A DNA stretch of 64,000 nucleotides from an uncultured Candidatus Saccharibacteria bacterium (GCA_964643995.1 CAZXUJ010000001.1:5622-69621); one strand, 5' to 3'. Positions 587-39,868 are shown, numbered from the stretch's first letter. Made by a program: numbers and translations. The notes: generated by a model not told the origin, from the letters alone.

Positions 587-588
587 AT

Positions 589-7910: not shown

Positions 7911-7948
7911 CTGTTCATTATAACCAAGAAACGGCTATAATTTAACTA

Positions 7949-9889: not shown

Positions 9890-9898
9890 ACTTATAGT

Positions 9899-11533: not shown

Positions 11534-11582
11534 ATAAGTGCAAGATACATTATAGCATTGTAGTTACAATGAAAACAAAGGG

Positions 11583-14915: not shown

Positions 14916-14990
14916 TGGAGCGAGAGACGGGGATCGAACCCGCGACCTCTTCCTTGGCAAGGAAGCGTTCTACCACTGAACTACTCTCGC
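14916..14990 (-). tRNA. tRNA-Gly (anticodon GCC)
   Basis: Reverse complement GCGAGAGTAGTTCAGTGGTAGAACGCTTCCTTGCCAAGGAAGAGGTCGCGGGTTCGATCCCCGTCTCTCGCTCCA; anticodon stem CTTCC/GGAAG, loop TTGCCAA. Confidence 0.85.
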
Positions 14991-20402: not shown

Positions 20403-20449
20403 ACATTCATAGTCGTTTAACTATTCATCTTTACTCGTATACTCTAAAT

Positions 20450-23057: not shown

Positions 23058-23911
23058 ATGAAGTCGGTAAAAAATTAATTCCACCTGTTATTAAGTGGAG
23101 CGGTAGCAAGAGACCTGTTGCTTATCAGTTATCACAGTATTTTCCAGAGACTAAAAGGTTCTTTGATCCATTCGTTGGAGGTGGTTCTATATTACCGTTT
23201 TTCTTTGGTAAAAAGGCTTTTGTTGGTGACGTAATTCCAGAGTTAATATTTCTTTGGGAATCGATTAAAACGGATCCAGACAAAGTTATTAATGAATATA
23301 GAACTAGATGGGAATCACTTAAGAATAATGGATACACTGAGTATTACTCCATTCGGGACACATTTAACGTAACAAGAAATCCTATGGATTTCTTGTTTTT
23401 AAGTAGAACCTGCGTGAACGGTTTGATTAGGTATAACAAAATAGGGGAATTTAATAATTCATTACATCATACACGCTCAGGTATAGATCCCGAACGTTTT
23501 GCCCCTATAATTAAAATGTGGAGCAAATGGATTCAACAAGTGTCGTTTCTCAATCAGGATTATCGATTAACATTAAAGGAAGTTACTAAAGGAGACACGG
23601 TATTTTTAGATCCCCCATATGTGGGTACAAAATCCAGATACATACCTCAAAAATTCGACTATGCAATTTTCTTTGATGAACTTGAGAGGCTAAACAGCAC
23701 TGGTGTTAACTGGATTCTCACCTTAGACGGTAATGCAGGGGATAGATATTATGATAGCAAGATTCCAAAAGAATTATATAAGGCCAGTATTAAGGTAAAT
23801 ACAGGAAAGTCACCGTTTTCAAAAGTAATGAATAATAAACAAGACAGTATTAGCGAATCAGTGTACTTCAACTTTCAACCAATTGCCAAAATGCCTAACG
23901 CGGTTTTGTAA
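23054..23911 (+). CDS. Dam-family (D12 class, alpha) N6-adenine DNA methyltransferase
   Basis: N-term IKWSGSKRP...FDPFVGGGS (motif I) then LDPPYVGTKSRY (motif IV); start overlaps previous MTase stop (ATGA). Confidence 0.8.
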   Translation: MNEVGKKLIPPVIKWSGSKRPVAYQLSQYFPETKRFFDPFVGGGSILPFFFGKKAFVGDVIPELIFLWESIKTDPDKVINEYRTRWESLKNNGYTEYYSIRDTFNVTRNPMDFLFLSRTCVNGLIRYNKIGEFNNSLHHTRSGIDPERFAPIIKMWSKWIQQVSFLNQDYRLTLKEVTKGDTVFLDPPYVGTKSRYIPQKFDYAIFFDELERLNSTGVNWILTLDGNAGDRYYDSKIPKELYKASIKVNTGKSPFSKVMNNKQDSISESVYFNFQPIAKMPNAVL

Positions 23912-25855: not shown

Positions 25856-26141
25856 ACAAGTCTATCCAATTTAATTGATATCCCAAAAATTTATCAAGAA
25901 ATATTAATTTCACTTTATAGGATATTGCAATATGGCCTTTTTATCAAGGAACTTAGGAAATTTTAAGCGGGATACTAATCTTGCACACTTTTTCGCTAAA
26001 ATAGAATTAATAAGCTTAAAAACTTATTTAAGAAATCTGAACAAAGGCACTTGTCACTTTAGACTTTAGCCATTGAACACGCCAAATGACCAAAAAGCAT
26101 ATGTAAAGTATGTAGTTATTTTTGTGCCTAAAAGGAGGCTT

Positions 26142-27470
26142 ATGGAAGAAAAATTAAATATAGTTTACGTACAAGTTAATAAATTAAACCCTGCCCCATA
26201 TAACCCCAGAAAGTGGGATGAGGACGCGTGTACAAAGTTAAAAGAAAGCCTAACAAAATTTGGCTTTGTTGACCCGCTGATAGTTAACTCGGCTCCAAAT
26301 AGAGAAAACGTGGTCATCGGAGGACACTTCAGGCTCAAAATGGGTATAGAGCTTGGTTTCAAAGAAGTTCCCGTTGTCTACGTTAATATTCCTGAGCTTG
26401 AAAAAGAAAAGGAATTAAACCTAAGACTTAACAAAAACGTTGGTACTTGGGATTTTAAACTATTGGCAGAGTTTGATGCATCGTTACTTGGTGATATTGG
26501 CTTTTCGAGCGAGGAGTTGGACGATATATTTGGAATCGACGATACACCTGAAGAATTCGACCTTCAAAAAGAACTTCAGAAGCTAAATATTCAAAATATT
26601 AATATCAAAAAAGGCGATGTGTATAAGCTTGGTGATAGTAGGCTAATGTGTGGCGACTCTACCGTCGACACAGATGTTCTAAAGCTATTTGGTGATGAAA
26701 AAGCCGATATGTGCTTTACCGACCCACCCTATATTCTTGATTACTTAAAAGGTAAGAAAAAAGCTGGTAATGCAATTACTGGCTTTGGTGCGAAACGTGA
26801 TCGTAGGTACCTTGAAACCGATGTTTTGCCCGATGATTTTACTGAAAAATGGATGGCAAATATTGCAAAGATCCAAAAGGAAAGCTTTTCAATTATTGTT
26901 TATGAAAATTGGAAAAACATACGAACCATTTGGGGCGAAATGGAAAAGTATTGGAAAGTTAAAAATATGATTGTGTGGCATTTACCAAATCGTACCCAAG
27001 GGTTTGCAGGCAAGTATAGATTCTTTTCCAAGCACGATATTGCAATGGTCGGAGCTTCTCCGAATGCCAATATCGATTATAACTTAGAACCCGAAGAAGA
27101 CGGTCTTCAAAACGAATATGAAACAGCACTTTATGCGATTTCAGGTAAACCTCAATGGGAAAGCTATAAGCATGGTAAAAAGTACCAGCCAACGGACTTT
27201 ATTGAGTATGTTGCCTCGGATGAAAAAAGCTCAGGCCAAGGCATCATATTTGGCACGAAACCACTTGAAATACTAATTCCATACATCAAAGTACTTACAA
27301 AACGCGGAGATCTAATTGTTGAACCTTTCGGTGGAAGTGGTTCAACTCTAATTGCGGCTACAAAAATGAACCGCAGATGTTACTTAATGGAAAAGTCGCC
27401 TGTTTATGCTGAAGTTATTAAAAACCGTTGGGAAAAACTTACGGGTCTTAAAGGGGAGCGATTATTATGA
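26142..27470 (+). CDS. ParB-like nuclease domain fused to beta-class DNA amino-methyltransferase (phage-type)
   Basis: N-term ParB/Srx fold (LNPAPYNPRKW...VIGGHFRL); MTase motif IV FTDPPYILDY then motif I VEPFGGSGSTLIAA. Start set to ATG at 26142, which has AGGAGG 6 nt upstream; ORF extends to 26073. Confidence 0.75.
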   Translation: MEEKLNIVYVQVNKLNPAPYNPRKWDEDACTKLKESLTKFGFVDPLIVNSAPNRENVVIGGHFRLKMGIELGFKEVPVVYVNIPELEKEKELNLRLNKNVGTWDFKLLAEFDASLLGDIGFSSEELDDIFGIDDTPEEFDLQKELQKLNIQNINIKKGDVYKLGDSRLMCGDSTVDTDVLKLFGDEKADMCFTDPPYILDYLKGKKKAGNAITGFGAKRDRRYLETDVLPDDFTEKWMANIAKIQKESFSIIVYENWKNIRTIWGEMEKYWKVKNMIVWHLPNRTQGFAGKYRFFSKHDIAMVGASPNANIDYNLEPEEDGLQNEYETALYAISGKPQWESYKHGKKYQPTDFIEYVASDEKSSGQGIIFGTKPLEILIPYIKVLTKRGDLIVEPFGGSGSTLIAATKMNRRCYLMEKSPVYAEVIKNRWEKLTGLKGERLL

Positions 27471-27886
27471 GTAAAGCAATTGAAGATAGGCAGAAAAAAG
27501 AACGCGCGCTACTTCTTGAAACGTTTAAGAAGACTCCAATTATTCAACTGGCTTGCGAAAAGTCTGGTGTTGGCAGAGCAACATACTATCGATGGCGACA
27601 TGAAGATTCCGAATTTGCACTTCAAGCAGATTTGGCTTTAGAGGAAAGCGTGGGGCTTATGAATGACCTTGCCGAATCTCAGCTTTTATCTGCGATAAAA
27701 GAAAAAAACATTACAGCTATTATATTTTGGCTTAAGAATAGACATAAGGCTTATACAAACAGGGTTGAAATAAATGCAAAAGTAGAATCAAAAAATGCGG
27801 AACTTAGCCCAGAACAAGAAGATCTAATAAAAAAAGCGCTTGGCTTATCAAGCATTGTTGCAAGCGGAGGTACGAAGGATGATTAA
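27467..27886 (+). CDS. Phage terminase small subunit-like HTH protein
   Basis: 139 aa, HTH IQLACEKSGVGRATYYRWRHEDSEF, immediately upstream of and overlapping terL; ATGA overlap with previous gene. Confidence 0.5.
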   Translation: MSKAIEDRQKKERALLLETFKKTPIIQLACEKSGVGRATYYRWRHEDSEFALQADLALEESVGLMNDLAESQLLSAIKEKNITAIIFWLKNRHKAYTNRVEINAKVESKNAELSPEQEDLIKKALGLSSIVASGGTKDD

Positions 27887-29396
27887 CTCCAGTTTATGCA
27901 CGGATGATATTGATAAGATAGTAAAAGACCCTAAGGTCAGAAAAGAACTAACCCGCAAAAGTCATTATTTGTTTTTCCATATTTACTTTGCTAGGTACGT
28001 CAAATATCCAACAGCTGATTTTCAAAAAGAAATATTTGAGCTGACTGAAAAGCCAGACGCGATGCTGTATGAAATCATTGCTTTTAGGGGTTCTGCTAAG
28101 TCTACAATAATGTCGTTATCACTCCCGATTTGGTCACTTATTAATGAGTCACAGAAGAAATATATTTTGCTTTTGAGCCAAACTCAGCAACAGGCTAGGC
28201 AAGCGTTAATCAATATAAAACGAGAGCTTGAAAGTAATGCATTACTTATTAATGACTTTGGACCATTTGATGAGGATAGTGATGAGTGGCGCACTAATTC
28301 ATTAGTTATTCCTAAATTTGATGCTCGAATTTCCGCGGCTTCTACTGGTGAAAGTATTCGAGGTGTAAAGCACGGTGAGTATCGACCTGATTTAATAATC
28401 GCGGACGATGTGGAGGATTTATCATCAGTTAAAACAAAAGAAGGTCGGGATAAAACGTACGATTGGTTTACTGGTGAAATCGTTCCCGCAGGTGATGTAA
28501 ATACTCGAATATTTTTAATTGGTAACCTTCTACATGATGGCTCTTTAATGGTTCAAATTAAAGAACAAATTCTTAGTAAAAAATTACGGGGTATATTCCG
28601 CGAGTACCCATTGGTAAGTGAAGACAAACAAATATTGTGGGCTGGCAAGTTCCCAAACAATGAGGCCATTGAGGCGTTAAAAGCTACAGTACCTAGTGAA
28701 TCAGCCTGGTCACGGGAATATTTGCTTAAAATAATCTACGACGACGATCGAGTCATAAAACCTGAGTGGATTCATAGATACTCCGATTTACCTCAAATAT
28801 CATGGGAAGGTTACCAATATACTGCCGTTGGTGTTGATATTGCAGTTTCTGAAAAAGAGCATGCGGATTATAGTGCAATTGTTGCAGGTATGGTTTTTAA
28901 AAAGAACGGTAATACATCCATTTATATATTGCCCTATCCAGTTAATAAGCATTTAACTTTTCCCGAACTGGAAGAAGCAATCCGTGATTTAGCTAGGTCA
29001 TTACCTACAAAAAGAAAAGTTAAATTATTCATTGAGGACGTTGGGGCTCAAAAAGCATTGGTTCAAAGGCTACAAATGTATGGGTACGATGTAGAAGGCA
29101 TAGTACCTAGGGCTGATAAACGAACTAGACTTGGTTACACGGCACAACCGTTAAAATACAAGACCGTGCAGTTGTGTAAATATGGCTGTGATGAATTAGT
29201 AGACCAGCTAAGCAATTTTGATTATGTAAGGCATGATGATCTTGCTGATGCCTTTTCACTGCTTGTAAATAAGGTTTTAGACGACGCTACAATAAAAAAG
29301 ATACAACCAAATATCCGTGTTCTATCTTCCACTAATAGTTTTAGAACGGTAGGTGGTGGAAGTGCCAACGACGTTGCAAGTTTCTTAAGAAGCTGA
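27879..29396 (+). CDS. Phage terminase large subunit (ATPase + RNase H-like nuclease)
   Basis: Walker A FRGSAKST, Walker B DLIIADDVED, C-terminal nuclease motif GVDIAVSEKEHADYSAIV. Start set at ATG 27879, preceded by GGAGGT. Confidence 0.75.
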   Translation: MINSSLCTDDIDKIVKDPKVRKELTRKSHYLFFHIYFARYVKYPTADFQKEIFELTEKPDAMLYEIIAFRGSAKSTIMSLSLPIWSLINESQKKYILLLSQTQQQARQALINIKRELESNALLINDFGPFDEDSDEWRTNSLVIPKFDARISAASTGESIRGVKHGEYRPDLIIADDVEDLSSVKTKEGRDKTYDWFTGEIVPAGDVNTRIFLIGNLLHDGSLMVQIKEQILSKKLRGIFREYPLVSEDKQILWAGKFPNNEAIEALKATVPSESAWSREYLLKIIYDDDRVIKPEWIHRYSDLPQISWEGYQYTAVGVDIAVSEKEHADYSAIVAGMVFKKNGNTSIYILPYPVNKHLTFPELEEAIRDLARSLPTKRKVKLFIEDVGAQKALVQRLQMYGYDVEGIVPRADKRTRLGYTAQPLKYKTVQLCKYGCDELVDQLSNFDYVRHDDLADAFSLLVNKVLDDATIKKIQPNIRVLSSTNSFRTVGGGSANDVASFLRS

Positions 29397-29427
29397 CTGA
29401 TTTTATAGTATAATTCCTTTATAAAAC

Positions 29428-29560
29428 TAAATCTCAGCGGCGAAACTGAAAATCCTTAAGTCTTTGACTTGAGGTCATCGAACCTAAAAAGGGGCTACCC
29501 TCTAGGGTTCGATGCTTCGCCGCTGAGATACTACAAGGGTAGTCCCTTTTTGTTTGTAGT
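29428..29560 (+). terminator. Multi-stem structured element ending in a rho-independent-terminator-like hairpin + T-tract
   Basis: 14-bp long-range stem ATCTCAGCGGCGAA(29431-44)/TTCGCCGCTGAGAT(29516-29) enclosing hairpins AAGTC-TTT-GACTT and CATCGAACC...GGTTCGATG; then AGGGTAGTCCCTTTTTG. Confidence 0.5.
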
Positions 29561-29657
29561 GTCTTAACATAGCTTAAGATCAAATAAAAGACTTGCCTTT
29601 GATTAGTTTTTGCGTCATCCATTGGCGCTAGTAAAAACTTATTTCAAAGGAGGTCTT

Positions 29658-30557
29658 ATGGATCAAGCTAAACAGGTTGAAACTGCTACGCCACAGTATA
29701 AAAACCTAGTTAAAAACTTATGGCGTAAAAGCTGGCTTCTAAAGCTTGTACTTATTGCACTTTATCCGCTATCTCTTACTTATTTAATTTGGAAATCTCA
29801 TAGACTGCCGAAAGTTGTAAAAGGCATACTTCTTTTAGTAATGTGGTTTTTTGTTATTGTATTTACTGCTGCTTTTTCAAGTCCAACAAGTCAGCAAGCA
29901 TATCAAGAAGGTCAAAAAGCAGGGCAAGAAGCCATTCAGAAGAAAGAAACTACTGAAAAGACAGCCACAACACAAGTTGCTGAGAACAACCAGCTAGTTC
30001 AAATACCTACTGAGCAACCTCAACCGACCGCAGCAGCAACACCGACTCCTACACCCACACCCACGCCAACAGCGCAGGTAGCCGAAAAGCCCGCGGAGCA
30101 AAAACCATATAACATTTACGACGATTTATGGAAAGCTCTGGATACTAGCTTAAAGACTCGAAAAAACATTGATATTAAATATGACGCGACTACAAAGATG
30201 GCAACGCTTTTGGTAAACGAAAACGAAACTTATTGGGATGAAACCGCTATGTTAAACAGTGCATATGCAAGACTCGTTAAATATGGCAAATCTGCCTTTG
30301 AAATAAACGGAGTAGATCAGGTAGGTGTAAACATAAGCACGAAAATGATGGATTCACATGGTAAAGAAAGCGTAGAGGAAGTAATCAGAGTAGCAATTAC
30401 CAAAACAAGCTACAAAGACTATAACTGGGATAACATGCAATACGTCGACGATTTCTACAACAAGATGGTGGATGCGGTAAGCGTTAATTACATAAATCCT
30501 GGGATTTTTAGAAAGCTGAATCTAGATAAGGTTCACCTTAACTTACTTTTGAATTGA
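29658..30557 (+). CDS. Membrane-anchored protein with Pro/Thr/Ala-rich linker (PTPTPTPTPT), unknown
   Basis: Start at ATG 29658, preceded by AGGAGG; two TM helices; low-complexity linker; C-terminal globular domain. Confidence 0.5.
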   Translation: MDQAKQVETATPQYKNLVKNLWRKSWLLKLVLIALYPLSLTYLIWKSHRLPKVVKGILLLVMWFFVIVFTAAFSSPTSQQAYQEGQKAGQEAIQKKETTEKTATTQVAENNQLVQIPTEQPQPTAAATPTPTPTPTPTAQVAEKPAEQKPYNIYDDLWKALDTSLKTRKNIDIKYDATTKMATLLVNENETYWDETAMLNSAYARLVKYGKSAFEINGVDQVGVNISTKMMDSHGKESVEEVIRVAITKTSYKDYNWDNMQYVDDFYNKMVDAVSVNYINPGIFRKLNLDKVHLNLLLN

Positions 30558-30607
30558 GAGAACTGGTGCGTAAGTATATACTTACGCACTATCTTAAGAT
30601 ATTTTAA

Positions 30608-30931
30608 TCAGCAACAAATCTTAAGTAGATTAATGTATCTTGTTAAACCGTCGGATTTCTTTCCGTAAGTTCGGAATAACTGCATCACGTTTTTTAGTAT
30701 TTCCTGTAAGTATTTCTTTTCCTCATTAGTAATATCGGAATTATTGAAAAGTTTAGTTCTTAGCGATATTAATTGCTCATTGCTATCTTGTTTCATACTC
30801 AAGATATGGTCTAGGTATGTCGCTACGTCAGTATTCGTAACAGTATCTTTTAAAAATAACATATCTATCTGATCTAGTTGTGTGTTCATATGCCTATTAT
30901 AACGTAAGTCAGCTATATGTGTTGTAACCAC
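30608..30931 (-). CDS. Hypothetical small protein (107 aa)
   Basis: ORF only. Confidence 0.3.
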   Translation of the reverse strand: MVTTHIADLRYNRHMNTQLDQIDMLFLKDTVTNTDVATYLDHILSMKQDSNEQLISLRTKLFNNSDITNEEKKYLQEILKNVMQLFRTYGKKSDGLTRYINLLKICC

Positions 30932-30978
30932 GCCACTCTTACTCTAACAAGATTCTTACCTTTTGGTATAATACCTCT

Positions 30979-32322
30979 ATGCGTATTGCGTTAATAACAG
31001 CCAGAATCGATCCTTTTATATCACCAATTGATATGGATGGTGGCTGTGTTATGGTGCGTAACTATATAAAATCCCTATATGATTTTGGACATGATATTCA
31101 TGTTTTTACTAGACTTGTAGAAGAATCTCCCATTAATAGTGAGCAGTTAAACACTAAAGCACGTATGCAAAAACAAGCAGGTGTTGGTAAGGTCAAAGTA
31201 AACTCCCGACTTACTGTTTATCGATTACCCTATACGTCCTTAAACTCAGAGGAGAAAGTATGGGAAAAACAACTTCAGGAGTCTTCATCGTTTCTAAGCA
31301 ATGTGAAGGTTTATCTTGATGCACAAAGTTTCGATGTATACCACTATTTTCATTTGCTATCTATAGCTGGATGGTACTTGCTTGATTCTGAAATTCCATT
31401 TATTGAAAAGACAACTTTTAGTCCTTTATTCTTGAGCATTGGACGGCAATTTGAATACCTGCCCGATGCGAGAATTGATATGGAAAGAAAAATCTTGGAA
31501 AGAGTACCTGCTGTAAGTGGCCAATCAAATGGTGAACTTAAAACTATACGTAAATCATACGGAATAGAAGATGAGAAGTTAGTAAAGGTACCTTTGGGGG
31601 TTGATACGAGTATTTTTTACCCTAAAGAGGAATTCGATTCTGTAACAACTAATAAAAAGGTAATTTTGATAAGTCCAAATTCAATAAAACCTCAAAAAAG
31701 ACAGTTGGAAGTTGTAAACATTGCAGGTGAACTCAGAAATCGTGGACATAATGTTTTAACAATAGTAATGGGCAGAATAAAAGATCCTGACTATTACGCA
31801 CAAATTCAAAAACGTATTGAGGAACTTAATCTAAGTCAGGCTTCTAGGGAGGATATTCCAACAAGATCAGAGTTATTAGCACTAAACTCGGATATATTAT
31901 TTTTACCGGGTAAAAAAGAAAAGGAGCTTTCTGACTTATTACGAACAGCTGATATAGCCGTTTTTCCCTCCACAGATGAAGGTTTTGGTTTGTTAAATCT
32001 AGATTGTATGGCATGTGGTACTTTAACTGTGTGCTCTAATCTAAAAGAATATGGTGACTATCTTATTCCAGGAGAAAATGCCATTGCAGTTGATGTTGAA
32101 AGAGGAATAAATGGTTTCATAGAGGAACTGGATGGTTTACTTAAAAATAAAGAAAAGATCGTGAAAATGTCAAAAATTGCAGTGAACAGTTCTCAGAATT
32201 TCTCGTGGGATAAACTTATAAAAAAACAACTGTTTGTTTATAACACCTTGTTTAATAATGAACCTGTTAATTACACAAAATTTCATACTTCAAATTGGGT
32301 AAATTTGAATGAGCAGGATTAG
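30979..32322 (+). CDS. GT4-family (GT-B fold) glycosyltransferase
   Basis: C-terminal GT4 signature region FPSTDEGFGLLNLDCMACGTLTV (ExFG...E motif). Confidence 0.68.
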   Translation: MRIALITARIDPFISPIDMDGGCVMVRNYIKSLYDFGHDIHVFTRLVEESPINSEQLNTKARMQKQAGVGKVKVNSRLTVYRLPYTSLNSEEKVWEKQLQESSSFLSNVKVYLDAQSFDVYHYFHLLSIAGWYLLDSEIPFIEKTTFSPLFLSIGRQFEYLPDARIDMERKILERVPAVSGQSNGELKTIRKSYGIEDEKLVKVPLGVDTSIFYPKEEFDSVTTNKKVILISPNSIKPQKRQLEVVNIAGELRNRGHNVLTIVMGRIKDPDYYAQIQKRIEELNLSQASREDIPTRSELLALNSDILFLPGKKEKELSDLLRTADIAVFPSTDEGFGLLNLDCMACGTLTVCSNLKEYGDYLIPGENAIAVDVERGINGFIEELDGLLKNKEKIVKMSKIAVNSSQNFSWDKLIKKQLFVYNTLFNNEPVNYTKFHTSNWVNLNEQD

Positions 32323-32327
32323 TTACT

Positions 32328-33194
32328 ATGAGAAAAGTAGTCAAAACAGACGCTGAACTAATTTTTGACACTGACAAGGTGTATAAACGGTTTACCACGT
32401 CCTCTGTAGATACAAACGTATTAAACGATCTAATTAGACTAGATAAACAGGCAAATCCAATTCCACATTTTTTGGGAATTTTACCTTATTTGGATACACC
32501 TTTTTGTAGTGAGGCTCTACCCGATGATACTCAAATATTAGTAATGGCTTATTTGCCTGAGCAGTACTTTCTAACAAAAATTACTGAAAGGGGTGAGTTG
32601 ACAGATACGATCTTGCAAAAAATGGCGCACGCCCTCTATAGCTTTCACTCAAAAATGACCATTGTTTCAGAATCTTTTGGAGGAAATTATCTTCTAAATA
32701 GATTTACAAAAGATAGGGAGTTAGTTGCAGACAAAGTAATATTGAATGCTGATGTAGCTTCATATCACAAAGGATTTACGAAAACACTTGATAGTAGCGT
32801 AGAAATTATCCAAAAAAGGTATCAAAATAACCGCTTAGTCGAAGGACATGGGGACTTGAATTTGGATCATATACATCTACAAAAAGACACTCTTACGTTT
32901 ATAGACTTTTCACACAATACAAAATATAGATTTGATGACGTTTCCCGAGATATCGCGGGCATTTATCTACATTTTATAGAACTTGGAAAAAAAGATTTTG
33001 CAACTGCTTTTCTGAGTGAGTATCGTAAGCTTAGTAACGACGCCGATCTTAATTTAATGGTAAATCTTCAAGTTGCTAAAAAGGTGTTAGTTAAGTATTT
33101 CATATACATAGGTGGATTTGATCCCAAACACTACGATGAAAAGATGCTTCAATCTGTTATTAACACTATAATCGACTTAGGAAACGTATACTAA
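32328..33194 (+). CDS. APH/choline-kinase-fold small-molecule kinase (candidate sugar or antibiotic kinase), paralog A
   Basis: Catalytic loop HGDLNLDHIHL and metal-binding FIDFSHN (HGDxxxxN...D motifs of the APH/ePK-like fold). Confidence 0.55.
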   Translation: MRKVVKTDAELIFDTDKVYKRFTTSSVDTNVLNDLIRLDKQANPIPHFLGILPYLDTPFCSEALPDDTQILVMAYLPEQYFLTKITERGELTDTILQKMAHALYSFHSKMTIVSESFGGNYLLNRFTKDRELVADKVILNADVASYHKGFTKTLDSSVEIIQKRYQNNRLVEGHGDLNLDHIHLQKDTLTFIDFSHNTKYRFDDVSRDIAGIYLHFIELGKKDFATAFLSEYRKLSNDADLNLMVNLQVAKKVLVKYFIYIGGFDPKHYDEKMLQSVINTIIDLGNVY

Positions 33195-33197
33195 ACT

Positions 33198-34253
33198 ATG
33201 CATATTTTAGAAATATCATCTTTACAGGAATTAACACCCCCAGAGGGTTATGGAGGTACAGAAAGATTTGTTCACTGGCTTTCAGAAGCTTTTGTAGAAA
33301 ATGGTAACCAGGTTAGTGTAATCTGCAAACAGGGATCCAAAGGTGGTACCTACCAAACAGTTTTCACAGAACAAGAGCAACTGACAGAAACTGTTAGGAA
33401 CTTTATTAAAAACAATGAGGTACAAATTATTCATGTAAATACTAAAGATAAATTCTTACTAAATTATTTAAAAACAACAAAGATTAAAGTAGTTATAACC
33501 CTTCACAATAATTTTAGGCGAACAAGTAGTTGGGTGGATTTAATAAAAGAAAACAATCCAAATTTTTACGTCACAACTATTAGTGAAAACTTAAAAAAGC
33601 GAGTTTTAGAAGCCCTTGAATTTAATTCTGTAACAATACCCACAAATGGAATTACTAATCTTGGCTTTGGTATGCCTATTACGAAAATAGTTAATAACGA
33701 AGATCCACAGTATTATTTATACCTAGGAGTGATGGCTAGATATAAAGGAGTTTTGGATATAGTAAAAGCTTTTTCTAATACAACCAAACAATTACTATTA
33801 GTTGGACCCTGTAACGACCCAAAGGAGAATGAGTATTTCAAGGAAATATTAGAATATACAAAACGTTATACAAATATTAAGTATTACGATGCTACAAAAG
33901 ATAATTCCGAAAAAGTGAATCTTATTAAAAGGGCAAAAGCTTTGATAGTGGCTACTGGATACGATCCTCTAGAAAGTGATTGCCACGAAGCTTTTGGACT
34001 TGTAATGCTTGAGGCAAATAATTTGGGTGTGCCCGTTATTGGTTTCGCAAAAGGGAATATAGAGGATTACATAGTAAACGGTGTTAACGGATATAAGTTT
34101 CAAGATATCAACCAGTTGCCTGAATTAGCCGATAAAGTTGAACAGAGTGACCTTAGTGAAAAGTGCATTGCTACTGCTGAAAAATATGATATCAATAAAA
34201 TCGCTACACAATATCTAAATTTCTTTACAAATATTCTTCAACAAAAGTATTAA
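33198..34253 (+). CDS. GT4-family glycosyltransferase
   Basis: EAFGLVMLEANNLGVPVIG (GT4 E-x7-E region). Confidence 0.68.
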   Translation: MHILEISSLQELTPPEGYGGTERFVHWLSEAFVENGNQVSVICKQGSKGGTYQTVFTEQEQLTETVRNFIKNNEVQIIHVNTKDKFLLNYLKTTKIKVVITLHNNFRRTSSWVDLIKENNPNFYVTTISENLKKRVLEALEFNSVTIPTNGITNLGFGMPITKIVNNEDPQYYLYLGVMARYKGVLDIVKAFSNTTKQLLLVGPCNDPKENEYFKEILEYTKRYTNIKYYDATKDNSEKVNLIKRAKALIVATGYDPLESDCHEAFGLVMLEANNLGVPVIGFAKGNIEDYIVNGVNGYKFQDINQLPELADKVEQSDLSEKCIATAEKYDINKIATQYLNFFTNILQQKY

Positions 34254-35079
34254 GCATACTCACGCTATTAGTTAATTTATCCTTATCGTAATGTACAACA
34301 TTGTACCCACCAGAATAGACAAAATATTTCATTAATACTCGTTTAGCTACTTGTAGTATTATAAGTTTTCTAATTAATTCATCAGACGTATATGCGAATA
34401 GTAATAAGTTGGAAAGCTTTTTAGAACCGCGCTGATACAAATCGAGGAAAAGAGTAGCGATATCCCTAGTCGGATCATCAGTTCGATATTTTTTTCTTAA
34501 GTAAAAGTCTATTAAACAAAAATTATCCCCTTCTTTAAAAAGATGTTCTAAGTTTACATCACCATGTATTTGTTTTATGTAACCCTTATTTGCTCTCTCA
34601 AGTATAAAGTCTCGAAGACTATTAAGTTCTTTGTCTATCTTTTCTAATATAGAGACTATGTTCTCATGCATATGAGGTAAGGTTCTAATACGAACGATAT
34701 CCTCCTTCATACGACTGTATAAATAGTCATTAGGTTGCTTATTATCAGTTGGGCATTTTGAATGAAAATTGTTTAGATACATACCTAATGGTTTTATTAT
34801 CTGTTCTAAATCATTTGTCTGTATAAGACAATCATCCTCATTTAATTTTCTCATAACCATAACGGGAGTGTTTGTGATATTAGGCCAAAAACCCTCAAAT
34901 TCTTTTGAAGTTTGCATTCTTAAAATAATAGGCTTTATGTTTGCTAAAGAGTCTAATAGGGGAATGTCAGTAAGGTCATCTTTCGTTACTTTGCCGTCTA
35001 AAATAAGCTTATAAACCTTATCTTTAGTAAAGACAATATCGACATCATCTTTGGTAATTCTTTTTAAAATTTCCTGCAT
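34225..35079 (-). CDS. APH-fold kinase, paralog B (inverted orientation relative to paralog A)
   Basis: IHGDVNLEHLF and LIDFY motifs; N- and C-termini alignable with 32328-33194 (DKVYK..., VAKRVLMKYFVYSGG vs VAKKVLVKYFIYIGG). Confidence 0.55.
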   Translation of the reverse strand: MQEILKRITKDDVDIVFTKDKVYKLILDGKVTKDDLTDIPLLDSLANIKPIILRMQTSKEFEGFWPNITNTPVMVMRKLNEDDCLIQTNDLEQIIKPLGMYLNNFHSKCPTDNKQPNDYLYSRMKEDIVRIRTLPHMHENIVSILEKIDKELNSLRDFILERANKGYIKQIHGDVNLEHLFKEGDNFCLIDFYLRKKYRTDDPTRDIATLFLDLYQRGSKKLSNLLLFAYTSDELIRKLIILQVAKRVLMKYFVYSGGYNVVHYDKDKLTNSVSMLNTFVEEYL

Positions 35080-36479
35080 TATCTAGGGTAATATGTACTA
35101 AAAATACGTTTCTTATCAAACTGTAAAACACTATTTCTGTTTTGTTCTTCATTAAATTGTTTTGGTAATTCTGTATAGTTAATTGAATTATTCTTATTAC
35201 AGTAGGAAAGATGTCCTCCTCTTTCAAACTGAGTAATCACTGTACAACCACAAGCTAGTGCTTCAAGTGGTGCTAACCCAAAAGGTTCTGTCCATTCGGG
35301 TTTTTCTAATCCAGCAAGGAAAATAAAGTATTTGTAGTCGTTTAGCACCTTAACTTTTTCTTGATCCCCTATTTCTCCCATTAATCTAGCCTTAGGATAG
35401 TTTTTCACTGCTGTCAGAAACGTATCTCCATACTCTTTTTCATTCTCACTAAAAATTATTGGACCGTAAAAATCTATTCCTAGATTGTATTTCTTTGCAT
35501 ATTCCAAGCAGGCTAGTGGGGATTTATGTTGTCCGATAGCTCCTATATACACGATATCTTTATCTCTATTGGTTTTATTTAGTGAGTATAAAGAAAAATC
35601 TATGCAGTTAGGTTTTATTTCATACCCAATACCTAAATTATTGAAATATTGTGTCTGCTGATCCCCTGATAACACAAAACATTCGCATCTTTTCAAATCC
35701 TTCAAATAAGCTAACTTTTCAGAGTAGTTGTTTTCAAGTATTACAAATACACGTCTCCCACATTTATCGAGTCTTTGGATTAAATCTTTCCCATAAGTAT
35801 ATGTGATGATCAGTCTGTAGTTTCCTAAATCAACATCCGCTAAATCTTCCAGACTAAAAGTGTGGTAATCAGAACCAACTTTTGATGCTATATCAACTTC
35901 ATAACCTAAATCCTTATAGTACTCGTACGCTAGTGCAGCCATACGTTCTCTACCACCATATAACTTAGGTGGTACACATATCGAATCGGGGGCTATTATC
36001 AAAACCTTCTTACTTAATGATTTTATATTTGTATCAAAAAAAGCAGGTATTTCTTTGTTTTCAAAATACTTTAATAGAGCGTTTTTGGATTCTACAGGTG
36101 TGATATTCAGATCTTTTAATTGGCTTATATCCACCCACATTGGAAAATATTGCTCATTTTCATTCATGTGTTCCTTTTCGGGGCCACCAAGCTCTAATTC
36201 GCCAGAGATATAGTTACATGAAAATACAAAATTTAAACGGGATTCCGTATCCAAATAGTAAATTAAGCGGTCTACAACAGCTTCTACATTAAATTCTTCT
36301 TTTATTTCACGCTTACAGGTTTCTTCTAGTGTTTCGCCATCTTCCCAATGTCCACCGGGAAGGGTATAGAAGACTTCTCCTTTAAGCACTTGCTTCATAA
36401 GAAGAAGTCTTCCATTGTCTATTACAACACCCGTTGACCTGAAACCGCGAGGTCTGTTTTTTAGAATAACTTTTTTCAT
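35079..36479 (-). CDS. Fusion: N-terminal Nudix hydrolase + C-terminal GT4 glycosyltransferase
   Basis: Nudix box GGHWEDGETLEETCKREIKEEFNVE; GT4 region EPFGLAPLEALACGCTVIT. Confidence 0.65.
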   Translation of the reverse strand: MKKVILKNRPRGFRSTGVVIDNGRLLLMKQVLKGEVFYTLPGGHWEDGETLEETCKREIKEEFNVEAVVDRLIYYLDTESRLNFVFSCNYISGELELGGPEKEHMNENEQYFPMWVDISQLKDLNITPVESKNALLKYFENKEIPAFFDTNIKSLSKKVLIIAPDSICVPPKLYGGRERMAALAYEYYKDLGYEVDIASKVGSDYHTFSLEDLADVDLGNYRLIITYTYGKDLIQRLDKCGRRVFVILENNYSEKLAYLKDLKRCECFVLSGDQQTQYFNNLGIGYEIKPNCIDFSLYSLNKTNRDKDIVYIGAIGQHKSPLACLEYAKKYNLGIDFYGPIIFSENEKEYGDTFLTAVKNYPKARLMGEIGDQEKVKVLNDYKYFIFLAGLEKPEWTEPFGLAPLEALACGCTVITQFERGGHLSYCNKNNSINYTELPKQFNEEQNRNSVLQFDKKRIFSTYYPR

Positions 36480-36480
36480 A

Positions 36481-37176
36481 CTAAATCATCCGTTGAGCAA
36501 ACAGTAAACCGTGACTTTCCAGCTCAGCTATGCTCTCAGGACTATGTACAAGGTTATCACGTACAGTGCCTTTTTTAAAGGGAATGTAGGTTTTAGCTGC
36601 AAATCTAAATACCCTTTTCAGATACGCAACTTGGCGCATTAAAATCTCCTCACTGACTTTGTGATTCCTTACAGTGAGCACTGTATATAACCCTGAGTTA
36701 TTCCTGCGAACTCCCTCGAGGAATGAAACTTGGTCAGGTGCCGTTTTTCTTGGTTCATCAAAGAAACCTACGAAGTCGGGATACACGACTTCAAAGAATA
36801 CTTGATCGTCGTGTGCTACCTTGGCTACAGCTTTTTGATGCTGAGTTACTCCGTAGCTTTGAAGGTATGCGATGAATACACCACCAAGAATAGTGCATCC
36901 ATATTTCCACGCCATCCCTTCCGCATCTCGTAACGGTACTGTTCCGTAGCGAACAGGTGGGCAATGTACAGGATATTTGGAATCAACAGAGTTGGTTCCT
37001 GTAACAGTGCCAGGTATGAAATTGTTCAAGAAAACCAGCATTTCAGAGATCGTGCTCTTGCTGGGCTCAAACATACCATCCCTGATGCGATAAATGCTTA
37101 AACCGCAACGCTCTGCAGCGTAGGGCTTAAGCACAACAAATGGTGCCTTTCCGCTTGCCAGCGTTTTTCGGTTCAT
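36481..37176 (-). CDS. Hypothetical protein with noticeably higher GC and different codon usage than neighbours
   Basis: 231-aa ORF. GC-ending codons are frequent (estimated by eye as mid-40s % GC against a mid-30s background). No family recognised. Confidence 0.4.
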   Translation of the reverse strand: MNRKTLASGKAPFVVLKPYAAERCGLSIYRIRDGMFEPSKSTISEMLVFLNNFIPGTVTGTNSVDSKYPVHCPPVRYGTVPLRDAEGMAWKYGCTILGGVFIAYLQSYGVTQHQKAVAKVAHDDQVFFEVVYPDFVGFFDEPRKTAPDQVSFLEGVRRNNSGLYTVLTVRNHKVSEEILMRQVAYLKRVFRFAAKTYIPFKKGTVRDNLVHSPESIAELESHGLLFAQRMI

Positions 37177-37259
37177 CTTTCTCTCCTTAGCTTAGATTTG
37201 GCGTCATTATAGCATTTATGTGGATATAAGGTATGATTTTGACTTTATAACTTGGATGC

Positions 37260-37279
37260 GTCATCAATGTGTTGATGAC
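37260..37279. promoter_or_regulatory. Perfect 8-4-8 palindrome GTCATCAA-TGTG-TTGATGAC overlapping the serine recombinase start codon
   Basis: Seen directly; position suggests an operator or recombinase-binding site. Confidence 0.4.
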
Positions 37280-38579
37280 AGAACAAGAAAATAAAAATCT
37301 AAAGTATTGTCTCTATGCTAGAAAATCTACTGAAAGTGATGAACGACAAGCAATGTCAATAGATTCCCAAATCAAAGAAATGATGGAACAGGCTAACAAA
37401 GAAGGTCTGAATATTGTTGAAATTCGCCAAGAAAGCCATTCCGCTAAACTTTCAGGGGCTAGGCCAGTGTTTAAACAATTGATCTATGACATAGATAAAG
37501 GATTATTCAATGCAATTCTTACTTGGGCACCAGACAGACTAAGTAGAAACGCAGGAGATTTGGGGGCTTTAGTTGATTTAATGGATCGTAAACAACTTTT
37601 GCACATCAAAACCTATTCCCAGACATTTTCCAACAATCCAAACGAAAAGTTTCTTCTTATGATTCTTTGTTCTCAGGCTAAGCTTGAAAATGATCACAGA
37701 GGTGAAAATGTTAAACGGGGTATTAGAGCAAAATGTGAACGAGGTTGGAGACCCTGCATGTCTCCACTTGGTTATCATAATAGAACGATAAATGGAGTTA
37801 ACGATCTTGTATTAGATGAGGTTAAAGCTCCCATCTTACGGGAAATGTTTGAATTGGTTGCATACTGTGGGTTTAGCGGGCGCTCTGTTAAAAGATATTT
37901 AGATAAGGAAAAGAACTTTCTATCAAGACGGGGCAAAAAGTTAGCGCTTGGGAGACTTTACGAAATTCTTAAAAATCCATTTTACTGTGGGGATTTTGAA
38001 TATCCTGTTGGAAGTGGAAACTGGTACAAAGGAAAACACGAACCCCTAATAACCAGAGAACTATTCAACAAAGTACAAGAAAAGCTGGCCACTTCTGATA
38101 AACCAAATTCAGAAAAACATGACTTTCCGTTCACACGAACAATAAGATGTTCAACCTGCGGATCGCACCTTACGGGAGAGGAAAGAACAAAGCAATTAAA
38201 GAATGGAAACAGAGTTAAGTATGTTTATTATCACTGTCTGCGTGGCAAGGACAAAGACTTTGACTGCAAGGAACCCTATATCCGTGAGGATGACCTGGTA
38301 ACACAATTAGTTGAAATTATTAACGAGGTGGAAATCGATAAGGATGCTTTTACTAAACTTTTACAGGAGGAATATACAAGGTTTGCAAAATTTAAAGCTA
38401 TTTTAAACGAAGATTCTCAAAATAATGAAGAAAAGCAAAGGCTAAAAGAAATTGATATTAAAACTTTTGCAAAACACATTTTAAGATTCGGATCTAATCA
38501 GGAAAGAAGGGAAATCTTTACATTAATTAAGCAACCACTTTATCTTAAGAACATGAAACTGTATGTACACATTAACTAG
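37269..38579 (+). CDS. Large serine recombinase (resolvase/invertase catalytic domain + recombinase domain + zinc ribbon)
   Basis: YARKSTESDERQAMSIDSQ (catalytic Ser region), RLSRN, Cys cluster CSTCGSH...YYHC. Annotated start is GTG; alternative ATG at 37275. Confidence 0.8.
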   Translation: MLMTEQENKNLKYCLYARKSTESDERQAMSIDSQIKEMMEQANKEGLNIVEIRQESHSAKLSGARPVFKQLIYDIDKGLFNAILTWAPDRLSRNAGDLGALVDLMDRKQLLHIKTYSQTFSNNPNEKFLLMILCSQAKLENDHRGENVKRGIRAKCERGWRPCMSPLGYHNRTINGVNDLVLDEVKAPILREMFELVAYCGFSGRSVKRYLDKEKNFLSRRGKKLALGRLYEILKNPFYCGDFEYPVGSGNWYKGKHEPLITRELFNKVQEKLATSDKPNSEKHDFPFTRTIRCSTCGSHLTGEERTKQLKNGNRVKYVYYHCLRGKDKDFDCKEPYIREDDLVTQLVEIINEVEIDKDAFTKLLQEEYTRFAKFKAILNEDSQNNEEKQRLKEIDIKTFAKHILRFGSNQERREIFTLIKQPLYLKNMKLYVHIN

Positions 38580-39513
38580 TTTTTAACTCTTTTAATAGGA
38601 ATTTTACCCAATCATGATACCAGTACCAATTTTTACCTACATAATTTCCGTAACCTTTTACAGGATCTTTAGCGTTATGTTTTCTCCATAAGTCCGTATG
38701 TGTACTAATCGATATGTTTATTCCTTTTATTTTAAGTTCGTTTATAACCTCTCTAGCTAAAAATAACTTTTCTTTTTTTTCTTTTATAACCACATATTCT
38801 TTACTAATGTTTTTAGCTAACGGTGAGTTAGGGTCAATAAATTCGATAACTCTATCTGCTTGACCCGATCTGTTCGCTGATACCTTTGTAAATAACAGTC
38901 TATATGCGAATCTCTCGTTTTTTAATTCTTCTGACTCCAGTTTGTCGTCAAATGCAGCTACATATGTTCTTATATTCTTGGATATCAATTTATCTTTGTT
39001 TTTGATTACTTGCATTTGGTCAAAATCTAATTCCGCGAATTGTAGGCTCAGCGCAAGATTATTATCCAGACCCTTTTTATCTCCATGAAGAAGCTTAAGA
39101 TAGAAGTTGTAGTTTAACGCGCATGCCTGATATCGTGCGGACATATAAGAATCAAGACCTTGCGCTTTTCTATGTTCAATCTGATTTCGTAATCCTATCA
39201 AAAACTGTAAATTATTTTTTGTATTTTTGTCCAATGGGCTCGCTGTATTGGAAACGCACTCCTGTAGATCCCAGTATTTTATACTTCCATCAGGATTCTT
39301 AATGTACCTTTTTCTATTTCCTTTTCCAGTATGGTATCTATATTCAATAGCGTGTTCTTTGTAGTAAGCGTGAAGTAAATAAGTCCATGCAATCATAGCT
39401 AAAACAATGAATGATTCAGACTTAAACATTATTAATGGGTTATTATATATCTGCACTGCAGATAACATAGCTTCCCGTGATTTATCAATTAGGTCAATTT
39501 TTTCTGCACGCAT
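38572..39513 (-). CDS. Hypothetical protein (313 aa), convergent with serine recombinase
   Basis: ORF only; its 3' end overlaps the recombinase 3' end by 8 bp. Confidence 0.4.
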   Translation of the reverse strand: MRAEKIDLIDKSREAMLSAVQIYNNPLIMFKSESFIVLAMIAWTYLLHAYYKEHAIEYRYHTGKGNRKRYIKNPDGSIKYWDLQECVSNTASPLDKNTKNNLQFLIGLRNQIEHRKAQGLDSYMSARYQACALNYNFYLKLLHGDKKGLDNNLALSLQFAELDFDQMQVIKNKDKLISKNIRTYVAAFDDKLESEELKNERFAYRLLFTKVSANRSGQADRVIEFIDPNSPLAKNISKEYVVIKEKKEKLFLAREVINELKIKGINISISTHTDLWRKHNAKDPVKGYGNYVGKNWYWYHDWVKFLLKELKTS

Positions 39514-39733
39514 ATTTTATATAAACCCCTAGTATGGATTATATCAAGCAACAACAAGTATTTTGGAACGGTCGGAACTTTGGACATAACCTAGGGTCAG
39601 ACGAGTCTGTAAATAGCAAATATTTTTGCTAAAAACGGCAGTAAAAGTATGATAATTTATGGTAACCCAAACGAGTCAGTTGGAACTTCAAGCAAAAACC
39701 TAGGGAGACGGAACGGTCGGAACTTCAAACATC

Positions 39734-39808
39734 TGGAGCGAGGAACGGGGTTCGAACCCGCGACCTCTTCCTTGGGAAGGAAGCATTCTACCACTGAACT
39801 ATCCTCGC
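39734..39808 (-). tRNA. tRNA-Gly (anticodon CCC)
   Basis: Reverse complement GCGAGGATAGTTCAGTGGTAGAATGCTTCCTTCCCAAGGAAGAGGTCGCGGGTTCGAACCCCGTTCCTCGCTCCA; loop TTCCCAA; differs from tRNA-Gly(GCC) at a handful of positions. Confidence 0.85.
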
Positions 39809-39868
39809 AACAAAGTGAAGAGGAGTAGCGATGTACTCATCGCGTCATCCTCGCAACAAAGTGAAATC
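39809..39868 (-). promoter_or_regulatory. Conserved structured leader of tRNA-Gly(CCC) (hairpin GCGATG-TACT-CATCGC) with flanking ~20-nt direct repeat
   Basis: Homolog of 14991-15047. Direct repeat (c/t)atcctcgcaacaaagtgaa at 39802-39821 and 39849-39868. Confidence 0.45.

Follow-up and report, generated by a model that had tools for sequence, protein, structure and literature searches.

The 64,000-nt stretch analyzed here (the window), from an uncultured "Candidatus Saccharibacteria" bacterium (GCA_964643995.1 CAZXUJ010000001.1:5622-69621), has a guanine-plus-cytosine (GC) content of 37.2% and encodes a large serine recombinase (LSR) beside an intact tRNA-Gly(CCC) gene. Between these two genes lie a convergent gene and a repeat-bearing spacer. 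The original prediction had grouped this region with an upstream orphan gene of higher GC content as a small mobile element of ~3.3 kb (36481-39733). We located all of the sequence features on which that prediction was based, with a single repeat coordinate shifted by 1 base. The features of this part of the window are as follows.

36481-37176, minus strand: "orphan" gene, 231 amino acids (aa), first gene of a NUDIX-glycosyltransferase operon; on the proposed island described below, outside the recombinase module
37238-37259, plus strand: left edge of the conserved recombinase module, with a -35-like TTGACT at 37238-43 and the motif TGCGTCAT from 37257
37260-37279, plus strand: perfect 8+4+8 palindrome GTCATCAA-TGTG-TTGATGAC, with the recombinase ATG (37275) in its right arm
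37275-38579, plus strand: large serine recombinase, 434 aa, proposed integrase (Pfam Resolvase, Recombinase, and Zn_ribbon_recom)
38572-39513, minus strand: DUF3644 (HEPN superfamily) cargo gene, 313 aa, convergent to the recombinase (Pfam PF12358)
39538-39546, minus strand: promoter-like extended -10 TGATATAAT, 25 nt upstream of the DUF3644 start, read from the sequence
39565-39733: conserved terminal arm of ~170 bp (proposed P arm), within the 220-bp spacer between the DUF3644 and tRNA genes
39565-39607, 39679-39711, and 39716-39733: GGAACTT-type direct copies in the arm, the last one cut by the junction
39590-96 and 39699-705: CCTAGGG words in the arm
39601-07 and 39671-77: ACGAGTC words in the arm
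39734-39739, plus strand: proposed attR core TGGAGC (tRNA 3'-terminal GCTCCA), the hexamer shared by the junctions
39734-39808, minus strand: tRNA-Gly(CCC), intact, with encoded CCA (ARAGORN and Rfam)

The recombinase and its tRNA-associated arm

The recombinase gene starts with the ATG at 37275 or, alternatively, a GTG at 37269, and we saw no Shine-Dalgarno sequence ahead of the start codon. Its product matched three Pfam families (PF00239, E value of 5.3e-22; PF07508, 3.2e-14; PF13408, 6.4e-08) and the PHROG 95 integrase (E value of 5e-68). It also aligned with SPbeta SprA/YokA (9dxh) from the region of the catalytic serine through the zinc ribbon; YARKST is aligned to YLRRS of SprA, DRLSR is present, and CSTCG...YYHC...FDC falls on the SprA zinc ribbon. 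Based on this sequence, with a catalytic N-terminal resolvase domain carrying the serine nucleophile, a recombinase domain, and a zinc ribbon, we classify the predicted protein as an LSR. The best NCBIfam matches were to CcrB, CcrA, and CcrC, and also to XisF, all far below their cut-offs (CcrB, 125 bits versus 900; CcrA, 79 versus 700). Given scores so far below the Ccr equivalog cut-offs, the recombinase is not a Ccr.

The recombinase family is very large, with >8000 matches at an E value of <1e-30. Copies sharing 94 to 97% aa identity occur at the loci L008, L009 (the same contig as L087), L010, and L088, and L089 encodes one at 87%. We surveyed the loci returned for the family (48 to 97% aa identity, some contigs redundant), which are mostly from Patescibacteria by record title. 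Among the 139 loci with at least 400 nt of downstream sequence, 95 have a tRNA gene within 6 kb. At every one of these 95, the closest tRNA is convergent, so that the 3' ends of the tRNA and recombinase genes face each other. A tRNA lies within 6 kb upstream of the recombinase at only 1 of 146 loci. The targeted tRNAs include those for Gln, Ser, Glu, Asp, Pro, Gly, Lys, and Trp. Within recombinase subfamilies, the arms beside the tRNA genes are conserved, and they have common motifs, such as GTTCY-N4-6-GACC and GCTTGCTAA. Relatives at 48 to 54% identity on IMG/VR contigs are mostly without a downstream tRNA. Two candidate family features were rejected. Upstream of the recombinase, long direct repeats that copy the tRNA 3' end were, apart from a few cases, as numerous over 72 loci as in the reverse-complement control, and a common left-end motif, GTCTGGAA, showed no enrichment (17 matches on the plus strand versus 16 on the minus strand).

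The spacer before tRNA-Gly(CCC) proved to be a conserved terminal arm that ends exactly at the tRNA 3' end, extending what had been recognized as a repeat cluster. The 16-mer GGAACGGTCGGAACTT occurs exactly twice, at 39565-39580 (previously placed at 39566-39581) and 39710-39725, and a partial third copy, GTTGGAACTTCAAGC, lies at 39679-39693. When up to 3 mismatches were permitted, 3 occurrences were found versus 0.31 expected, and no shuffle reached 3. Together with the CCTAGGG and ACGAGTC words, the repeats flank a variable, AT-rich center. The arm is 84 to 89% identical at the nucleotide level in L008, L009 (three copies), L010, and L088, in which the ~80 nt nearest the tRNA and the distal ~45 nt are almost invariant and the central ~50 nt are free to vary. 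In close relatives, the spacer recurs from GGTCGGAACTTTG... to ...GGTCGGAACTTCAAACATC, and 7 of 7 arm copies end with ...GGTCGGAACTTCAAACATC followed directly by TGGAGC. Without exception, the related elements terminate at ...CAAACATC and TGGAGC, either at the CCA end of a tRNA-Gly gene or, in L009, beside tRNA-like sequence.

This pattern indicates that the constraint on the arm acts at the DNA level. We rejected the possibility that the spacer is a structured RNA: neither strand folds better than shuffled sequences (z scores of 0.16 and 0.56), the alignment of the 7 copies contains no covariation or compensatory pairs, and no Rfam family matched at E values up to 1.

Based on these features, we propose that the recombinase is an integrase that recombines a site on the element with tRNA-Gly(CCC) at its 3' end, by a crossover in or beside the TGGAGC hexamer, which corresponds to the tRNA-terminal GCTCCA. 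With exchange at the terminal hexamer, the tRNA would stay intact and only its downstream flank would be replaced. The predicted reaction is attP x attB recombination with a 2-bp staggered break, and the same 6-bp TGGAGC is shared by both proposed junctions. The ~170-bp spacer would then be the element's own arm, in which the three GGAACTT-type repeats are most likely binding sites for the recombinase or an accessory factor.

Horizontal transfer, the empty site, and the probable extent of the island

The recombinase gene, the DUF3644 gene, and the repeat-bearing spacer (37275-39733) constitute a conserved module that recurs at 82 to 90% nucleotide identity. The recombinases are 94 to 97% identical, versus 37% for the host protein DUF2207 in L009 and 50 to 68% for host proteins in L008. 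A recombinase and arm far more alike than the proteins of the respective hosts demonstrate that the module moved horizontally between divergent hosts. One unit, encoding the recombinase, HIT, M23 peptidase, and NUDIX proteins followed by the arm, is shared by L008 (2199-5314) and L009 (261-3279) at 84 to 86% nucleotide identity and occupies two contexts: tRNA-Gly(GCC) in L008 and tRNA-like, non-tRNA sequence in L009. The latter locus (1-12370) is a tandem array. Unit a has a frameshifted recombinase gene, HIT, M23, and NUDIX genes, and arm a. Unit b has Mrr, a 614-aa protein, and arm b, with no recombinase. Unit c comprises an HTH_3 regulator, an MA-type peptidase, a radical-SAM/SPASM protein with a weak pVip match, recombinase c, an HEPN-like open reading frame (ORF), and arm c, after which the array ends at tRNA-Gly(GCC).

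A scan of representative genomes for the HD-domain protein encoded beyond the tRNA found no syntenic relative. Synteny was reached through ORF 17141-18085, which has a single true homologue (P0161, 66% identity), on contig L182. This contig is syntenic with the window at 72 to 74% nucleotide identity, in the order tRNA-Leu, DUF2207, PGM, HD protein, and tRNA-Gly(CCC), with YceI also kept ahead of DUF2207. There, tRNA-Gly(CCC) is unoccupied: it is followed directly by unrelated DNA (...ctcgctcca, then CGATAAAAC), no recombinase gene follows the CCA, and the locus nowhere contains the arm motif. L182 lacks window positions 18337-39733, with homology resuming at 18336, and the distance from the HD gene to the homologue of ORF 17141-18085 is ~3.9 kb in L182 versus 21.8 kb in the window. 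The empty tRNA in a syntenic relative and the arm that ends at the tRNA-Gly 3' end bear out the proposal that a recombinase-borne mobile element resides at this locus.

These findings leave very little room for a locus at which nothing is mobile, with a vertically inherited recombinase (for example, a host DNA invertase or resolvase) next to chance repeats in a tRNA spacer. Adjacency of the recombinase to tRNA-Gly in 5 of 5 close relatives could, taken alone, pass for conserved synteny. It is contradicted by the excess of recombinase identity (94 to 97%) over host protein identity (37 to 68%), the unoccupied tRNA-Gly(CCC) of L182, the presence of the module at a non-tRNA site in L009, and repeats that are kept in every arm copy, beyond chance.

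The features of the left part of the region are as follows.

18379-18458, plus strand: proposed left junction (attL), with the core TGGAGC at 18379-84 and then tRNA-Gly-3'-end-like ACCAGTCGAGTCTGGAAACCC..., read as the P' arm
18495-20402: OLD-like ATPase with AAA_15 and TOPRIM domains (Pfam and PHROGs)
22212-23911: two DNA methyltransferases, N6_N4 and Dam type (Pfam and PHROGs)
26073-27470: ParB-methyltransferase, a ParB-N6/N4 fusion (Pfam and PHROGs)
27467-29396: terminase small and large subunits (large subunit, TerL, phrog_38, E value of 1.3e-72)
29610-30557: ORF with a terminator hairpin, in the left part of the proposed island (18495-30596)
30979-36479: glycosyltransferase, kinase-like, and NUDIX-glycosyltransferase cluster, AT rich (30.5 to 34.4% GC; Pfam)

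The TGGAGC core at 18379 is 43 nt from the edge of L182 synteny. The sequence that begins with it (18379-18458) is 88 to 90% identical to the sequence directly after arm copies a and b in L009. Also, a 222-nt blastn match (~85% nucleotide identity) to the C terminus and terminator of ORF 29610-30557 lies within L009 between left-end-like sequence and recombinase c, and this fragment within an L009 unit ties the left and right parts of the island together. For these three reasons, we infer that 18379 is the element's own left end (core plus P'). The L009 junctions would therefore be attP-like P-core-P' joints between tandem units.

Overall, we assign a probability of about 60% to the reading that an integrated element, mobile between hosts by horizontal transfer, has its tRNA-proximal end at this locus. 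That element is most likely a mosaic island of ~21.4 kb (18379-39739), integrated through the end that bears the 2.5-kb module. It would reach left to 18379 and include the OLD-like ATPase, methyltransferases, terminase, glycosyltransferase cluster, and nucleoside diphosphate kinase-like orphan. The original prediction was thus right about the kind of element and wrong about its boundaries, given that the conserved module begins at ~37257, inside the ~3.3-kb block that had been proposed, and that the whole island most likely extends to 18379.

The sequences of the products can be predicted. The attP would consist of the arm, TGGAGC, and ACCAGTCGAG... (18385 onward). In an island that is presumably still active, ...GGAACTTCAAACATCTGGAGCACCAGTCGAGTCTGG would be read across the attP of the circularized 21-kb form or across a joint between tandem units, and the restored attB would read ...CGTTCCTCGCTCCATAAACCTTAAATTTC.

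Several observations weigh against this interpretation. The island position in L182 is taken by other genes (DUF1361, Alr, tRNA-Gly[GCC], and a 466-aa ORF), and the locus was therefore rearranged (replacement plus rearrangement) rather than interrupted by a clean insertion. When the 42 nt to the left of the core (18337-18378) were compared with the sequence flanking the empty L182 tRNA, 46% of shuffles scored at least as well. Known large serine integrases need only ~50-bp sites, and three repeats over 170 bp fall outside their canonical mechanism. The 2.5-kb module yielded no candidate directionality factor. Among IMG/VR viral contigs, we found neither an excised circle nor a free attP (no exact match to the arm-core 25-mer), and no close relative; TerL relatives share 22 to 25% identity and recombinase relatives 48 to 54%. 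No portal, capsid, or tail gene was recognized by PHROG among the ten ORFs scanned (18495-30931). The island is at best a prophage remnant and, if once a prophage, is degraded or mosaic. Finally, L010, which shares 30128-38564 with the window, is from a possibly related coassembly and may be chimeric at the common recombinase or arm.

The main competing possibility, which we consider distinctly less probable, is that only the 2.5-kb module (~37257-39739) is mobile, as a minimal autonomous tRNA-homing element composed of a recombinase gene, one cargo slot, and an arm. In that case, 18379 would be an unoccupied secondary pseudo-attB, and the 18.4- to 37.2-kb interval would hold unrelated, separately acquired islands. 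The similarity between L008 and L009a has sharp edges that fit such a unit, beginning at TGCGTCATC, ~20 nt 5' of the recombinase start codon, and ending at the core. Across the family, pairwise nucleotide similarity usually stops ~60 to 110 nt upstream of the start codon, and at 35 of the 95 tRNA-linked loci the recombinase is 128 to 300 nt from the tRNA (128 nt being the shortest distance) with no cargo. A (T/A)GC(G/A) sequence, a possible central dinucleotide, is present at both module junctions, and the likeness of the left-junction sequence to a tRNA-Gly 3' end is loose (16 of 24 positions for the L009 copy), as would be expected of a pseudo-site. A 2.5-kb circle junction would join ...GGAACTTCAAACATC to TGCGTCATCAATGTG, with or without the GC/TGGAGC core. 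However, a 2.5-kb unit leaves without explanation the 18379-type sequence found twice directly after an arm in L009, the 43-nt distance between 18379 and the synteny edge, and the ORF 29610-30557 fragment upstream of the L009c recombinase. The integrase gene of known LSR elements usually sits at one end of a larger element, and the sharp edge upstream of the recombinase may therefore mark only the start of variable cargo.

Recombinase upstream region, cargo slot, and neighboring genes

The palindrome over the recombinase start codon had been called an operator, in a region read as holding att or recombinase-binding sites. As a lone 8-bp inverted repeat, it is not significant by itself (32 of 100 shuffles matched it at up to 3 mismatches). 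Its position is kept in relatives, including L089 (TCATCCATTG/CAATGGATGA), L008 (GTCATC/GATGAC), and L009c and L088, in which a 14-bp stem surrounds GCGGTAC/GTACCGC (-20 kcal/mol; z score of -5.3). The predicted RNA hairpin is -11.9 kcal/mol in the window (z score of -3.1) and weak in L008 and L009a. Family wide, arms of at least 8 bp near the start codon occur in 13 of 141 members, versus ~1 expected from shuffles. The sequence has changed with pairing kept between enzymes that are 94 to 97% identical, which fits a hairpin better than a sequence-specific recombinase site. An att site or crossover at the palindrome is also at odds with its location inside the conserved module, within the region common to L008 and L009a. 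We suggest that the palindrome forms a hairpin or regulatory element that limits recombinase expression. In some insertion sequence elements, a hairpin hides the start codon in read-through transcripts, and the hairpin here could sequester the start codon similarly. Upstream, family members share the motif T(G/A/T)GACT-N15-17-TGCG(T/G), to which the window contributes the TTGACT at 37238-43.

The convergent gene, previously an unknown gene of 313 aa, encodes a DUF3644/HEPN protein (PF12358, E value of 6.8e-53, 179 bits versus a cut-off of 27.6) that matches the PADLOC defense candidate PDC-S19 (PDLC04948, E value of 5.1e-124). It has an Rx4H motif, R109-NQIE-H114 (RNQIEH, residues 109 to 114), and no recognized domain in its C-terminal ~120 residues. 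DUF3644 is an HEPN domain (PMC3710099). The DUF3644 protein HEC-08 defends against phage and requires its HEPN histidine (bioRxiv 10.1101/2024.01.29.577857), and "Ishtar" DUF3644/DUF4145 proteins act against plasmids (bioRxiv 10.64898/2026.07.06.735840). Based on these sequence matches, we consider the window gene a putative RNase defense gene resembling the candidate system PDC-S19.

The cargo between recombinase and arm differs among relatives. L010 is 96% identical to the window at the nucleotide level over 30128-38564 (8.4 kb, from the glycosyltransferase cluster through the orphan to the recombinase), yet the place of the DUF3644 gene is taken by an unrelated ORF of 200 aa; in addition, the L010 tRNA-Gly(CCC) differs in sequence, and the flank past this tRNA is unrelated. 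L009c and L088 have a weakly HEPN-like 256-aa ORF, L008 and L009a have the HIT, M23 peptidase, and NUDIX genes, and L009b has an Mrr nuclease and the 614-aa ORF in a unit without a recombinase. The swapped segment is bounded on one side by the end of the recombinase gene (3') and on the other by the distal repeat copy (~39569). Cargo has thus been replaced between otherwise similar modules, consistent with a slot for an exchangeable gene that would be occupied here by DUF3644/HEPN. The extended -10 at 39538-39546 (of the form TGnTATAAT) may be the cargo promoter, pointing outward from the arm to the cargo. In L008, L009, and L089, the motif ATATCAAGC is partly kept where the arm adjoins the cargo. 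Family wide, cargo ORFs are diverse and include type IIG and type I restriction-modification (R-M) components, Mrr, HNH, AbiEii-like ATPases, arsenic resistance, and NUDIX.

Exchange of this kind raises the possibility, which we regard as improbable, that the recombinase is a resident, integron-like platform enzyme that shuffles single-gene cassettes, each with its own arm, beside a tRNA promoter. Variable cargo in otherwise near-identical modules would fit this arrangement, as would the L009b unit of cargo and arm without a recombinase, the many defense-type cargo genes (R-M, Mrr, HEPN, and AbiEii-like ATPases), and the orientation of the cargo ORFs, 72 of 106 of which read in the same direction as the tRNA in the family survey. 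In L096, a tRNA-Gln-targeting family member, the cargo ORF is flanked on each side by a copy of the arm sequence (11038-11268 and 12049-12235), suggesting that cargo arrives as its own arm-bearing unit. However, the recombinase and arm themselves move between hosts, and the platform is therefore not resident. Homologous recombination between the recombinase gene and the arm could equally swap cargo, and apart from the arm itself, we found no site specific to a cassette. Nor does the window contain an arm remnant between the recombinase and DUF3644 genes, whose stop codons overlap.

The orphan gene is compositionally anomalous, as had been noted, although the contrast is modest. Its GC content is 44.7% and its third-codon-position GC content (GC3) is 41.4%, versus averages of 37.6 ± 2.9% and 32.2 ± 4.5% for the 55 long ORFs of the window (z scores of 2.5 and 2.0), and it ranks third by GC3. 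The anomaly appears larger because the adjoining glycosyltransferase genes are unusually AT rich; the genes directly beside the orphan have a GC3 of 26 to 31%. The idea that it was acquired separately, in connection with the recombinase, does not hold, given that its homologues in L005 (76% aa identity), L006 (50%), and L007 (47%) adjoin NUDIX-glycosyltransferase, GT4, and kinase-like genes equivalent to those at 30979-36479. In L006, the gene upstream of the orphan homologue encodes a 797-aa protein, and in L007 the homologue is amid glycosyltransferase genes; neither has a recombinase beside it. L005 still has the promoter region of the orphan, the left arm side of the palindrome (one half), and ~50 nt like the recombinase 5' end, followed by an unrelated tRNA. 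We interpret this remnant, by its sequence, as a deletion scar.

Homologues of the orphan are rare, with only 6 among 5.8 billion nonredundant sequences and 31 clusters among 1.84 billion representatives, and no family match was obtained in Pfam, NCBIfam, PHROG, or PADLOC searches. The top Foldseek matches in the PDB to its AlphaFold (AF2) model (pLDDT, 86.9) were nearly all nucleoside diphosphate kinases (NDKs), and these matches were weak (E values of 0.013 to 0.07; TM scores of 0.25 to 0.48). A DNLVHSPE motif is invariant in the orphan family and resembles the NDK active-site motif, NxxHGSD. Tentatively, the modeled fold suggests a divergent NDK-like enzyme of a nucleotide-sugar pathway.

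The glycosyltransferase cluster is probable island cargo. Within it, paralogous ~285-aa proteins are encoded at 32328-33194 and 34225-35079. Their L005 homologue matches the APH (aminoglycoside/choline kinase-like) family, and the window copies gave only weak RIO1/TCAD9 matches. These paralogues, the NUDIX-glycosyltransferase fusion, and the NDK-like orphan suggest a nucleotide-sugar modification pathway.

Farther left, the gene content of the interval from 18.5 to 30.6 kb likewise resembles that of a mobile genetic element. The phage-type trio at 26073-29396 is followed by the glycosyltransferase cluster. A defense-like block at 18495-25855 (the OLD ATPase, a 593-aa ORF, the N6_N4 and Dam-type methyltransferases, and a 665-aa ORF) may be an R-M or Gabija/OLD-like system. 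The region at 18379 has no Rfam match. A promoter-like TTGTCT-N18-TATAAT on the minus strand (18408-18437), in the proposed island end, faces outward to ORF 17141-18085 (minus strand). This ORF has the highest GC content in the window (47.6%; z score of 3.5) and no Pfam family. Its leader (18086-18336) is ~250 nt long, is kept at ~71% nucleotide identity in L182, and has no Rfam match.

We also noted several features of the tRNA-Gly genes. An exact 19-nt direct repeat, ATCCTCGCAACAAAGTGAA, at 39801-39819 and 39847-39865 comprises the first 8 nt of tRNA-Gly(CCC) and 11 nt of its 5' leader, with the second copy 46 nt upstream, just past the stop codon of the HD-domain gene, and a GCGATG...CATCGC hairpin between the copies. 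L182 holds a weaker form of the repeat (TGCGAGGGATA / TGCGAGGGTAG). The second tRNA-Gly gene of the window, tRNA-Gly(GCC) at 14916-14990, is unoccupied and shares its 3' end, CTCGCTCCA, with the L008, L009c, and L088 sites that are occupied; a racemase-like gene starts 21 nt past it. Logan short-read contigs L001 to L004 from the source samples (window 36207-39772) break at 37276 (in the palindrome), 37672, 38455, 39677, and 39772. Differences among strains or further community copies of the recombinase and arm could underlie these breaks. We did not use them as evidence of population heterogeneity, given that low coverage is equally able to cause them.

Comparison with known systems

The recombinase has the same three-domain architecture as the large serine integrases SPbeta SprA/YokA, A118, TP901-1, phiC31, and Bxb1. 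As in those systems, its gene is at the end of the integrated DNA beside a junction, and the proposed junctions share a core, here of 6 bp. In contrast to them, the window enzyme is short (434 aa), is distant from LSRs with solved structures (E value of 1e-13), lacks an evident directionality factor, and targets a tRNA gene at its very 3' end, and the arm is ~170 bp with three direct repeats, versus ~25 bp per half-site in canonical LSR systems. To our knowledge, characterized LSRs mostly target protein-coding genes or intergenic sites. In a limited search of the literature on serine recombinases, tRNA targets, and the candidate phyla radiation (CPR), we found no description of tRNA pairing by this recombinase family.

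The closest theme in that literature is the marking of antiphage defense loci by small serine recombinases (RADS pipeline, PMC13552941). Those loci resemble the one described here in linking a serine recombinase to defense genes, both known and candidate, and they differ in that the recombinase here is large and has a defined tRNA target and conserved arm. With regard to the cargo itself, HEC-08 has zinc-finger-like C-terminal domains, whereas the C terminus of the window DUF3644 protein has no recognized domain.

Integrons likewise have a recombinase beside a slot of exchanged single, mostly promoterless genes that are read away from a fixed promoter region. However, IntI is a tyrosine recombinase that acts on folded attC sites, whereas the window enzyme is a serine recombinase, we found no folded site specific to a cassette, and the platform is mobile. 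The serine recombinase and the lack of a conserved folded site in the arm rule out an integron identity.

As a bolder generalization, one that we think unlikely and advance only as a possibility, the recombinase and its ~170-bp three-repeat arm could be a self-contained cassette platform that homes to tRNA 3' ends, is widespread in Patescibacteria, and is a serine-recombinase counterpart of integrons or staphylococcal cassette chromosome (SCC) elements. Such a platform would land on the CCA end of a tRNA gene, capture, stack, and swap single defense or accessory genes, and have its cargo driven by tRNA read-through or by its own outward promoter. Units without a recombinase, such as L009b, would be mobilized in trans, and the extra repeats would be accessory recombinase sites absent from canonical large serine integrases.

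More broadly, a "hypothetical, recombinase, hypothetical" annotation can be replaced by a defined mobile module with its right end placed to the base, a swappable slot, and an HEPN candidate. If the tRNA association of the family reflects integration specificity, the family would be rich in natural pairs of LSRs and att sites with short, conserved, and predictable targets. In CPR genomes, in which mobile elements are poorly charted, the family would further offer a practical way to mark variable islands and defense genes.

SCC/Ccr elements also enter a conserved housekeeping gene at its 3' end, leave that gene active, and carry variable cargo. Recombinase-less SCC units, known as psi-SCC, occur in composite arrays, and the tandem or composite L009 array with its recombinase-less unit is comparable. 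Unlike SCC, the window element has one recombinase instead of a CcrAB pair and targets a tRNA gene rather than rlmH/orfX, and its hosts are, by record title, Patescibacteria. Genomic islands that enter tRNA genes by means of tyrosine integrases (P4-like) also keep the tRNA intact and have an adjacent integrase gene, defense or accessory cargo, and tandem accretion. They differ in that the enzyme here is a serine recombinase and that there is no long repeat of the tRNA 3' end, only the 6-nt core and a loosely tRNA-like flank (16 of 24 positions). In how it works, the element resembles an LSR-integrated island. As a class, such mobile islands are ordinary. What is unusual is a serine recombinase on a tRNA CCA end, a 170-bp arm with three repeats, and a strict tRNA association across a family. 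In its organization, the element is closest to SCC/Ccr, and in its choice of target, it is closest to the tRNA islands of tyrosine integrases.

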